The position numbers and the translations under genes are program-made. The notes beneath the pieces were generated by a model. The model had not been told where the DNA came from and ran no database searches. It saw only the letters and a program-made list of their open reading frames with translations. From an uncultured Micavibrio sp. (GTDB lineage: Bacteria; Pseudomonadota; Alphaproteobacteria; Micavibrionales; Micavibrionaceae), in contig CAYGPG010000002.1 of the NCBI GenBank assembly GCA_964351905.1, positions 49,320 through 113,319 on the forward strand: a DNA stretch of 64,000 nucleotides, read 5' to 3'. Positions 45,887 to 48,613 of the stretch are shown in pieces (positions within the stretch are counted from its first letter, which is position 1; each line of letters opens with the position of its first letter).

Positions 45887-48613
45887 ATGAAAACAGTAAA
45901 AGACATTCGAAGTGAATTTTTAGGTTATTTTGAAAAGAAGGGACATACGCAAGTCGCGTCTTCGCCGCTTGTGCCGCAAAATGATCCAACGTTGATGTTT
46001 GTGAATTCGGGCATGGTGCAATTTAAGAATGTTTTTACAGGTACGGAAAGCCGTGATTATACTCGTGCCACAACCTCGCAAAAATGTGTACGGGCAGGGG
46101 GCAAGCATAATGACCTTGATAATGTGGGCTATACCGCGCGCCATCATACATTTTTTGAAATGCTGGGGAATTTTTCTTTTGGTGATTATTTTAAGGAAGA
46201 AGCCATTTCTTATGCATGGGAATTGGTGTCTAAAAATTTCCAAATGCCTAAAGATAAATTGCTAATTACCGTTCATTCGACTGATGAGGAAGCAGCAGGG
46301 CTTTGGAAGAAAATCGCTGGATTTTCTGATGATCGCATTATCCGTATCCCGACAGACGATAATTTCTGGCAAATGGGGGATACAGGCCCGTGTGGCCCTT
46401 GCTCCGAAATTTTCTATGATCAGGGTGATCAATTGCAAGGCGGCCCGCCAGGGTCACCAGATGAAGATGGTGACCGTTTCTTAGAATTCTGGAACCTCGT
46501 TTTCATGCAGTACGAGCAAGAGCCAGGTGAAGATGGTCAGCCTGTGCGCCGTCCATTGCCGAAGCCTTCTATTGATACAGGAATGGGTTTGGAGCGTATT
46601 GCGGCATTAATGCAAGGCAAGACGACAAATTATGATATTGATCTGCTCCATACAATTATTGAGAACTGCGCCGGTTTAACAGGTGTGGCCTATGAAGGCG
46701 AAAATGCGCCAAGTCACCGCGTGATTGCCGATCATTTACGTTGTGCGTCATTCTTGCTTGCAGATGGCGTGATGCCATCTAATGAAGGGCGGGGTTATGT
46801 GCTACGCCGAATTATGCGTCGCGGGATGCGTCATGCGCATTTATTGGGCGCGAAAGAGCCATTGATGTATAAATTATTGCCTAATTTGGTGTCCATGATG
46901 GGCGAAGCCTTCCCTGAATTAAAACGTGCGGAATCTATGATTTCTGAAACATTAAAGAACGAAGAAACGCGCTTTAAAACAACATTGGATCGCGGTTTGA
47001 AGATGCTTGATGAGGAAGCAGAGAATGTGCGTGATAATAAGTTGGCAGGCGATGTGGCATTTAAGCTTTACGATACGTATGGTTTCCCTGTTGATCTCAC
47101 GCAAGATGCGCTTCGTACCAAGGGCATTGAAGTGGATATGGATGGGTTTGAAGCCTGCATGAATGAACAAAAAGCCAAAGCGCGTGCGGCTTGGTCAGGA
47201 TCTGGTGATGCAGGCACAGAAAAGCTTTGGTTTGAAATTTTAGAGAGTGTTGAGCCAACAGAATTCTTAGGCTACGAAACCGAAAAAGCGGAAGGCAAAG
47301 TTTTGGTTCTTGTGAAAAAAACTCCCCCCCTTACCCCCCCGCAGGCGGGGGGGAAGCGACTGGAAGGAGTAGGGGGGGAGCAGGCTACCCTGAAAATAGT
47401 AGATCGTTTAGAAAAAGGCGATGAGGGGCAGATTATCGTCAACCAAACACCTTTTTATGGTGAGAGTGGGGGGCAGGTTGGTGATAATGGCGTCGTGAAA
47501 GGGGAAACGGGTTCTGCCTTGGTCACGGACGTGAAGAAGCAGTTGGGCAAACTATTTGTGCATCATGTCACGGTGACGGAAGGGCATATTAATAAAAATG
47601 ACGCGTTGCAAATGAGCGTTGATCATAAGCGTCGTGGTGCGATCCGCTCTAATCACTCCGCAACGCATTTATTGCATGAGGCGTTGCGCGAAACATTGGG
47701 TGATCATGTCGCGCAAAAAGGATCGCTACAGGATGCGGAACGCACACGTTTTGATATTTCTCAACCCTCTGCCGTGACTCCCGAGCAATTAAAGGCCGTC
47801 GAAGCGCAAGTGAATGCGGAAATTCGTTCTAATACAAAAGTTGTGACACGCGTCATGCCGATTGACGAGGCCATGGAGAGCGGCGCGATGGCGTTGTTTG
47901 GCGAGAAATATGACGACGAAGTGCGTGTGGTGTCTATGGGCTCCACGGCTGAAGGCGCGAACAAGCCCTATTCAGTTGAACTTTGTGGGGGGACGCATGT
48001 GGCGCGCACGGGTGATATTGGTCTATTCAAAATCGTCAGCGAAAGCGCGATTGCCGCAGGGGTGCGCCGTATTGAAGCTTTAACGGGAGCCAATGCTTTG
48101 GCTTATTTAGAAGAACAAGAAGAGAAACTGAATGAGACGGCACAGATCTTGAAAGCCGCCCCCAGTGATGTTGCAGAACGTGTAAAATCGCTTCAGAATG
48201 AAAAGAAAAAGCTGGAAAAAGAAGTGGCGAACTTACGTAAGCAGATAGCCATGGGCGGAGCAGGCGCCAATGATGATCCGAAAGAAATTAATGGTATTAA
48301 ATTCATCGGTAAGGTTTTAGAAGATTTTCCCGTCAAAGAATTGCGCGGTATGGCGGAAGATTTGAAGAAGAAAATTGGCTCTGGCATTATCGCGTTGGTG
48401 GCGACAGACACAGAAAATGACAAAGTGTCGATTATTGTGGCTGTGACGTCAGATTTAACGGATAGCCATAGCGCTGTTGACCTCGTCAAACTCGGCGCAG
48501 AAGCTCTCGGTGGCTCAGGCGGCGGCGGCCGCCCAGAAATGGCTCAAGCCGGCGGTGCCAATCCTGCTGCGGCCAATGACGCGGTGAGTGTGATTGAGAA
48601 AAAGTTGGGTTAA
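45887..48613 (+). CDS. alaS: Alanine--tRNA ligase, with an in-frame repeat-derived insertion
   Basis: 908 aa. [15 protein letters not shown], editing-domain HSATHLLH and CGGTH, and C-terminal [13 protein letters not shown]. Confidence 0.95.
47324..47381. repeat. G/C-homopolymer palindromic module inside alaS
   Basis: CCCCCCCTTACCCCCCCGCAGGCGGGGGGGAAGCGACTGGAAGGAGTAGGGGGGG, translated in frame as [18 protein letters not shown]. Confidence 0.7.

Follow-up and report, generated by a model that had tools for sequence, protein, structure and literature searches.

How does a palindromic, homopolymer-rich segment come to lie, in frame, within an essential gene? This question is raised by alaS, which encodes alanyl-tRNA synthetase (AlaRS), in a 64,000-nucleotide stretch of DNA from an uncultured Micavibrio sp. 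(GenBank assembly GCA_964351905.1, contig CAYGPG010000002.1, forward-strand positions 49,320 to 113,319), hereafter called the window. An earlier reading of these letters without database searches (the sequence-only reading) had described four 7-nt runs of C or G in this gene, together with a similar module in a second, unrelated gene, and had proposed that both share a mobile origin. The segment has proved to be an insertion which the closest relatives lack, and it belongs to a widely distributed family of small palindromic repeats that reside in frame in real genes. We favor, with moderate rather than firm confidence, the explanation that it is a lineage-specific insertion of a tiny non-autonomous palindromic repeat, which would have been dispersed in trans and would be tolerated as a disordered loop.

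The insertion in alaS and its counterpart in cysQ

The host gene and the parts of the inserted segment are as follows; loci and AlaRS relatives used for comparison are cited by L and P numbers, respectively.

45887..48613, plus strand: alaS (alanine--tRNA ligase), 908 aa, the host gene; an open reading frame (ORF) with the Pfam domains tRNA-synt_2c, tRNA_SAD and DHHA1, whose relatives are named alanine--tRNA ligase
47321..47389, plus strand: the in-frame insertion, 69 nt net, which equals 23 codons (residues 479-501), seen as a gap against the alaS of L002
47324..47330, plus strand: outer C7 run, the 5' arm of the outer stem
47331..47333, plus strand: left bulge TTA, a shortened version of the TT(A/T)CAT bulge of the family
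47334..47340, plus strand: inner C7 run, the 5' arm of the inner stem
47341..47346, plus strand: central loop GCAGGC; the loop of the cysQ module, GCCTGC, is its reverse complement
47347..47353, plus strand: inner G7 run, the 3' arm of the inner stem
47354..47371, plus strand: 18-nt right bulge, AAGCGACTGGAAGGAGTA, a feature typical of long-form copies; aligned with L138, L177, L173, L182, L155 and L145
47372..47378, plus strand: outer G7 run, the 3' arm of the outer stem
47379..47389, plus strand: insertion tail AGCAGGCTACC, read directly from the sequence, which includes a second GCAGGC

The pattern C7-TTA-C7-GCAGGC-G7-N18-G7 reported by the sequence-only reading was recovered exactly at 47324-47378, as the 55-nt sequence C7 TTA C7 GCAGGC G7 AAGCGACTGGAAGGAGTA G7, whose ends are the C7 and G7 runs and whose flanks are ACT and AGC. 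The stretch encoded by the module amounts to 20 residues, followed by QAT, and comes in frame directly after GKVLVLVKK. That AlaRS carries extra residues was thus correct, while their number, put at about 20, was too low: compared with the alaS DNA of the nearest relative, L002 (80.6% identical), the window is longer by 45 + 24 = 69 bases, a net gain of 23 codons. The sequence-only reading had taken other AlaRS to lack the segment, and the alignment agrees. In 112 of 119 relatives (68-88% identical), the insertion is absent and VK-DG runs directly into the following strand; the nearest two, P0002 (88%) and P0003 (87%), are among those without it. For the window genes examined, the closest relatives are Micavibrio-like alphaproteobacterial metagenome-assembled genomes (MAGs).

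The alaS copy is of the long form, which has a 3-nt left bulge, a right bulge of 14-20 nt and CT...AG flanks. It aligns over its full length with long-form copies of other alphaproteobacterial MAGs (L138, L173, L177 and L182), with which it has these flanks in common. Its left bulge, only TTA(C), is three bases short of TT(A/T/G/C)CAT and resembles the 3-nt TAA bulge of L173 and L182. Judging from its letters, the insertion tail is possibly the remnant of a duplicated half-unit; duplicated GCAGGC-G7 half-units are present in L126, L137 and L146.

The structure of the insertion site was modelled with AlphaFold2, a check that the sequence-only reading had suggested. The model of the window AlaRS is of moderate confidence overall (mean predicted local distance difference test score, pLDDT, of 69.8) and confident around the insertion site, where the insert falls on a turn between two confident strands (residues 467-479 and 501-505); residues 481-499 have a pLDDT below 50 and no secondary structure. 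The model accordingly shows the insert as a disordered loop of Pro and Gly at the turn of a beta-hairpin that lies just upstream of the editing core. Since the alignment of solved archaeal AlaRS and AlaX structures to the window AlaRS starts at residue 511 or later, it would lie in the first beta-hairpin of the barrel preceding that core. Seven other AlaRS relatives have unrelated extra residues at or beside the same beta-turn, which is therefore a generally permissive site. The extra segment of P0118 (L189) at this turn is a palindrome resembling a repetitive extragenic palindromic (REP) sequence, with a CGTC motif (-25.8 kcal/mol); those of P0037, P0073 and P0099 were rejected as hairpin modules, being A+T-rich and unstructured (-3.7 to -7.6 kcal/mol). 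As an observation in its own right, the turn has received independent insertions in several lineages (P0067, P0068, P0006 and P0118), the P0067 segment being 47 residues long. An intein or mini-intein was also discarded as an identity for the window insert: its 23 residues contain no splicing blocks (N-terminal Cys/Ser/Thr; C-terminal His-Asn followed by Cys/Ser/Thr), and inteins need at least about 130 residues.

The second copy in the window lies in an unrelated gene.

12259..13131, plus strand: cysQ (3'(2'),5'-bisphosphate nucleotidase), 290 aa, the second host gene; an ORF matching PDB 3b8b (CysQ) with an E-value of 1e-34, whose relatives are named CysQ
12616..12662, plus strand: cysQ module, C7 TTACATCT C5 GCCTGC G7 AGTTTGA G7, which encodes 16 residues; net insertion of 45 nt, or 15 codons

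This copy represents a different sub-form, the short form, with a left bulge TTACAT(CT). Compared with the solved CysQ structure 3b8b, the 15 additional residues fall in a gap at the beta-turn IALIQ-/-KPVLGVVY. The segment is absent in 117 of 119 relatives, most of which are 275 aa long versus 290 aa in the window. At the nucleotide level, L193 has an empty site (ATT AGA AAT AAT AAA CCT), L191 has a copy at the identical position (C7 TTACATC CTCCCC ACAAGC G7 AGAATGA G7) and L192 has a decayed copy at the same position. These three carriers (the window, L191 and L192) are not sisters, and their nearest relatives without the insert share 90-91% (window, L191) or 84% (L192) amino-acid identity with them. 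That the window and L191 had recently recombined at cysQ was rejected, as the flanks are no more alike than the whole gene (74% identical). Neither inserted sequence resembles the corresponding empty site (alaS against L002; cysQ against L193).

Both modules are G+C-rich (76% in alaS, 74% in cysQ) in a window of 42% G+C. Eight C7/G7 runs occur in the window versus 3.3 expected, seven of them in these two modules, and the nested-architecture pattern matches the two modules only, as against 0.00 in 100 dinucleotide-preserving shuffles. As single-stranded DNA, the alaS and cysQ modules fold into nested hairpins (-21.0 and -18.8 kcal/mol; z about -3.0 and -3.5), and their RNA folds reach -44.6 and -39.1 kcal/mol. 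Five of the six reading frames are open across the alaS copy, and four of the six across the cysQ copy. Four 7-nt runs in an essential gene represent, in principle, a frameshift risk. The independent Logan assembly of run ERR3534970 (L001) equals the window at 7197 of 7198 bases, module included.

A repeat family in unrelated genes and genomes

The architecture of the family, defined here from the copies of other genomes, comprises an outer C6-9 run, a bulge, an inner C5-9 run, a short loop, an inner G5-9 run, a bulge and an outer G6-9 run. One genome per species (GTDB) was scanned with the pattern C6+ ... CCCCCGCAGGCGGGGG ... G6+, which returned 63 stretches with this architecture; the genome of the window was not among the matches, although the pattern does match the window. 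According to a tally of record titles, they are distributed as follows.

Chloroflexota: about 19 of 63 stretches
Alphaproteobacteria-type MAGs: about 14 of 63
A single FCB-group MAG: 7 of 63
Poribacteria: 5 of 63
Cyanobacteria, including the isolate Synechococcus sp. H60.4: 4 of 63
Spirochaetes, Armatimonadota and others: the remainder

A few matches in very G+C-rich genomes may be due to chance. A further scan, of metagenome contigs with the left arm as anchor and the loop left free, gave at least 120 matches.

The consensus reads C7 TTTCAT C7, a variable loop of about 6 nt, then G7 AAAGA/ACAGA G7. Arms and bulges are conserved across phyla and the central loop is hypervariable, ranging from 4 to 9 nt; identical 45-mers are found in L165 (Nostocaceae) and L176 (Anaerolineae). 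The outer two loop positions covary (GC:44, AU:7, UA:7 and CG:41, AU:7, UA:6; types GC..GC, AA..TT, TT..AA and GT..AC), with a score higher than in any of the 500 shuffles or the slid controls, and few G-U pairs occur. This combination points to a palindrome at the DNA level. The orientation of the loop flips between similar copies, GCAGGC and GCCTGC occurring with the same arms in L143 and L158, in L145 and L155, and in the two window modules.

A covariance model was built from 66 copies outside the window; its scores are given here with E-values that are rough.

Window cysQ copy: 51.1 bits, E 4.6e-8
Window alaS copy: 25.5 bits on the plus strand (full length), E 4e-3; 29.7 bits on the minus strand (core), E 6e-4
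L191 cysQ copy: 48 bits, E 1.6e-7

The alaS and cysQ modules, which the sequence-only reading had taken for the same kind of element, are thus both recognized (25-30 and 51 bits) by a model to which neither contributed. Its interpretation that the modules have a common origin, rather than having converged, is also supported at the level of sequence, as copies with this architecture and these bulge motifs are met again and again, in numerous genomes and in genes unrelated to one another. No Rfam family matched ten module-bearing loci at gathering thresholds. Searches of the full-text literature, including the core sequence and the peptides, found no description of the repeat family, the study of Elhai et al. 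of 2008 being outside what could be read.

In-frame copies were found in the following genes of other genomes.

ValRS: L127; also L125 (an Anaerolineales ORF similar to ValRS)
AlaRS, at another site than in the window and as a multi-module insertion: L145
CysRS: L155
Pyruvate dehydrogenase (PDH) E1beta and E2 linkers: L173, L182
Sua5: L175
Lpd: L139
ChlH/CobN: L165
Non-ribosomal peptide synthetase adenylation-domain loops: L158
TnpB: L149, L151, L153

Pfam domains flank the module on both sides in ValRS, AlaRS, PDH E1beta, PDH E2, Sua5, Lpd, a pyridoxal phosphate-dependent enzyme and TnpB; in CysRS and ChlH, it is located beyond one end of the matched domain. Counting only copies more than 700 nt from contig ends, and among the matches listed, ORFs of at least 200 aa span 18 of 22 genome copies and 25 of 33 metagenome copies (76-82%), versus 70% (genome) and 75% (metagenome) for positions drawn at random from these loci. 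In contrast to REPs, the family is therefore not excluded from genes.

In a Rickettsiales-labelled MAG (CAYULD01, 35% G+C; L127, 2955-6341, minus strand), ValRS contains an in-frame C6/G6 module followed by a complete DUF559, a PD-(D/E)XK endonuclease-like domain (Pfam E 1.4e-40), located between the two synthetase halves; an endonuclease domain within an essential synthetase, without an intein, is unusual. The Rhodospirillaceae MAG CANHAG01 has several tandem modules in the AlaRS editing domain (L145, 4339-7263), where the extra segment includes PPQAGGIKEEAQTGG and PPQAGGAGGG, and several more at the C-terminus of CysRS (L155, 1-1383). In a Chthonomonadales MAG (L150, 180-570), about nine tandem units of C7 TTGCAT C6 GTAGAC/GTAAAC/GCCTGC G6 AGTGGGTG are found within 400 bp, and modules can therefore form arrays. 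Synechococcus sp. H60.4 (L149, L151 and L153) carries three tnpB copies of IS605 type with an in-frame module and identical flanks; the module was therefore inside the insertion sequence (IS) before the IS multiplied. Finally, in four Poribacteria species that have an orthologous copy, 40 of 40 module columns are invariant, compared with 164 of 241 columns of flanking coding DNA (assuming independence, P about 2e-7).

Mobility and competing explanations

It is the distribution of the copies that suggests mobility. In the scenario that we favor, a self-complementary repeat of about 40-60 bp, whose two C-runs and two G-runs would form nested stems enclosing a short loop, would have spread as non-autonomous mobile DNA moved in trans by a hairpin-recognizing enzyme. 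The substrate of this enzyme would most plausibly be single-stranded DNA, as for REPs, REPINs (paired REPs) and IS200/IS605-type elements; three features suggest such movement, namely the structure, the absence of target duplications and a pattern of action in trans. Stop codons are nearly lacking from the sequence, whose CCC and GGG codons would yield a Pro- and Gly-rich peptide without structure. Copies whose length is a multiple of three, at a surface turn or a linker, would be kept because such a peptide leaves the protein working, and slippage by one base within the C/G runs may contribute to restoring the frame. For AlaRS, the outcome would be a disordered loop of about 23 residues that caps a beta-hairpin where the editing region begins and, for CysQ, a 15-residue loop at a beta-turn.

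Traces of the insertion process and candidate mobilizing genes were sought. Among 93 copies, no target duplication of at least 3 nt emerged (direct repeats of 3 nt, one observed and 1.45 expected; of 4 nt, one and 0.36; of 5 nt, none), and 2-nt flanking direct repeats numbered 12 versus 5.8 expected. Flank positions at +/-1 show modest complementarity (49% versus 32% expected); extended complementarity was rejected. An all-against-all comparison of 1771 ORFs from 63 loci revealed no shared neighbour gene beyond orthologous synteny, and the predicted proteins of the window that were scanned yielded no transposase or integrase domain. A link to the DUF559 endonuclease was discarded: it adjoins one ValRS copy (L127), and tblastn found DUF559 in no other locus nor in the window. 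Carriage by phages was likewise rejected, two specific patterns having given 1 and 0 matches in 2.9 million viral contigs. A loose four-run pattern applied to these contigs had matched mostly long, artefact-like poly-C-poly-G junctions at contig ends and was replaced by loop- and bulge-anchored patterns.

Several points weigh against dispersal of a neutral, mobile passenger. Simple random insertion does not predict cysQ copies at the same position in three non-sister lineages, a recurrence which requires a strong site preference, selection leaving a single permissive site, or repeated precise loss. The invariance of the Poribacteria copies suggests nucleotide constraint or concerted evolution. 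The REP hallmarks, that is, a GTAG or CGTC tag and an extragenic location, are lacking. Neither a transposition event, nor a polymorphism of empty and filled sites within a population, nor a mobilizing gene was observed, and translation of the AlaRS loop is itself presumed. Because a neutral passenger explains neither the Poribacteria conservation nor the recurrence at the cysQ site, we keep a cis function or a site-specific, donor-templated mechanism under consideration. The repeat might thus represent an unrecognized class of elements of about 45 bp, present across many phyla, as much at home in coding sequence as in spacers, invariant in nucleotides over species-level divergence, and spread or regenerated unlike known transposases; we regard this as unlikely, if still deserving serious thought. 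A candidate process would be hairpin-templated, donor-dependent copying with a nucleotide-precise site preference, which would explain the recurrence in three lineages.

That the module is kept for a cis role of its DNA or mRNA hairpin (as a translational pause, a determinant of mRNA stability or a DNA structural signal), mobility being secondary, appears doubtful to us. In the pause version, an RNA hairpin of about -40 kcal/mol would act with Pro-Pro codons at a domain boundary or a linker. The stability of the RNA folds is in line with this proposal, as are the Poribacteria columns, all invariant against 68% in the flanks, the maintenance of loop-proximal pairs by compensatory changes, and the location of several copies where domains join or in linkers (in AlaRS, ahead of the editing core; in PDH, the E1beta and E2 linkers). 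However, both orientations and five reading frames are represented among the copies, which have no consistent functional position in their unrelated host genes; the rarity of G-U pairs argues for a constraint on DNA over RNA; the closest relatives manage without the alaS and cysQ insertions; and decay has affected the cysQ copy of L192. Near-perfect palindromes with a variable center whose two sides change together might instead have arisen locally and without mobility, through errors of replication for which a hairpin serves as template (by template switching, snap-back synthesis or slippage), their resemblance being convergent. The flips of loop orientation among similar copies, the recurrent use of the cysQ site, and the failure to find target duplications or a linked enzyme would fit such an origin. 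We nevertheless judge it improbable, as it does not account for non-pairing bulges that are conserved across phyla (left TTTCAT/TTACAT and right AAAGA/ACAGA in 55 and 7 of 72 metagenome copies, among the matches listed), for the identical 45-mers in Nostocaceae and Anaerolineae, or for inserted sequences unlike the empty sites.

The geometry of the module, with conserved inverted arms of about 20 bp on either side of a hypervariable center of 6 nt, is also that of a core site for a tyrosine-type site-specific recombinase, similar to dif, lox or FRT. Single sites in essential genes with no partner site or recombinase nearby, a center that varies from 4 to 9 nt, and the near absence from viral contigs make this identity very improbable. 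An assembly or sequencing artefact, such as poly-C/poly-G chimeras of the kind that dominated the loose matches in viral contigs, can hardly be credited: the window copies are internal, in frame and the same in two assemblies, orthologous copies occur in four Poribacteria genomes (three of them labelled chromosome assemblies) and in L191, an isolate genome (Synechococcus sp. H60.4) has copies as well, and frames are intact in dozens of unrelated genes.

Known systems and other repeats of the window

To our knowledge, palindromic insertions in frame within working genes are textbook matter only for Rickettsia, in the form of Rickettsia palindromic elements (RPEs), with scattered reports for REPs. 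In-frame palindromic repeats are thus a known kind of element, and what is new in the favored insertion of a dispersed C7/G7 repeat is that the repeat is several times smaller, extends over at least half a dozen phyla and has nearly identical arms. RPEs, of which ten families of about 150 bp have been described from Rickettsia (PMC10969869), are likewise palindromic, in frame in many unrelated functional housekeeping genes, thought to encode peptides compatible with the protein fold, and without a known mobilizing enzyme (PMC10969869, PMC3733652). By description, the present repeat is set apart from them by its size (a module of 55 nt and a whole insertion of 69 nt, versus about 100-150 bp). 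Across the family, repeats of 38-60 bp have homopolymer C/G stems, nearly identical arms and hosts in several phyla.

With REPs and REPINs, the modules share the nature of short, G+C-rich, dispersed stem-loops which sometimes lie in ORFs, at loops or linkers, and lack a target duplication. REPs are mostly extragenic and bear, at one end of the stem-loop, a GTAG or CGTC tag (PMC3733652), whereas the C7/G7 module has no such end tag and its copies, 76-82% of which are in ORFs (the metagenome share being among the matches listed), show no avoidance of genes. Micavibrio has been reported to have CGTC-1 REPs (PMC3733652); the window indeed contains CGTC-type REPs, and P0118 (L189) has a REP at the identical AlaRS turn. 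In contrast to REPIN systems, no domain of a REP-associated tyrosine transposase (RAYT/Y1_Tnp) was found in the scanned ORFs of the 64-kb window. [quoted passage not shown] They usually measure 70-300 bp, with IS-derived terminal inverted repeats and target-site duplications (PMC3733652). The C7/G7 module differs by its size of about 45 bp, the absence of duplications of 3 nt or more and the lack of a visible parent IS; in the fetched loci, where a parent IS was looked for, no isolated half-sites bracket a gene.

The G+C clusters, or double-hairpin elements, of fungal mitochondria are short, G+C-rich palindromes in A+T-richer DNA, apparently mobile and mostly intergenic, with occasional in-frame cases (yeast var1). 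We know of no established mechanism for them; they are organellar rather than bacterial and their sequences are unrelated to the module. Small dispersed repeats (SDRs) of heterocystous cyanobacteria, reportedly described by Elhai et al. in 2008 from Nostocales only (cited in PMC3116915), are said to be hairpin-forming and apparently mobile, with lengths under 30-50 nt and no known enzyme. SDRs and the C7/G7 module, compared by description only, are alike as very small, apparently mobile hairpin repeats.

The repeat resides in aminoacyl-tRNA synthetases and central metabolic enzymes. If confirmed as undescribed, it would be a common origin of Pro/Gly-rich loops in bacterial proteins that goes unannotated. 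It would also confound alignments, the prediction of structures and quality checks of MAGs, as sequencing is likewise prone to errors in C7/G7 runs. Its copies would equally map, in a natural way, the sites in essential enzymes that tolerate insertions, and the question would arise of which agent moves a 45-bp hairpin, or maintains it, across phyla.

Relaxed regular expressions revealed no additional copy of the module in the window. Between two minus-strand genes, an intergenic nested hairpin at 34317-34362 (CCCTCTC TTT CCCTCTCCC TCA GGGAGAGGG GGAAGATA GAGGGGG) has the same architecture with C/T-mixed arms and a weak match to the covariance model (23 bits, E 0.011), and could represent either a diverged copy or a sister family. 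REP-like palindromes occupy intergenic positions 2927-2971, 15744-15790 and 21170-21219; two of the three are copies of ACGCGGCAATCCAGA...TCTGGATTGCTTCGT(C), a CGTC-type REP, and the third is a double hairpin, CACATCCCAGCGAAAGCTGGGATCTAGATTCCTGCCTACGCAGGAATGTG. Ordinary extragenic REPs therefore coexist in this genome with gene-dwelling C7/G7 modules. A solitary C7 run followed by TTTA, without partner G-runs, at 534-540 is probably due to chance. Just 3' of alaS, a 255-aa ORF without a Pfam match (48610-49377, minus strand) is replaced in L002 by a 106-aa ORF of the opposite strand, and the two loci therefore differ in local gene content.

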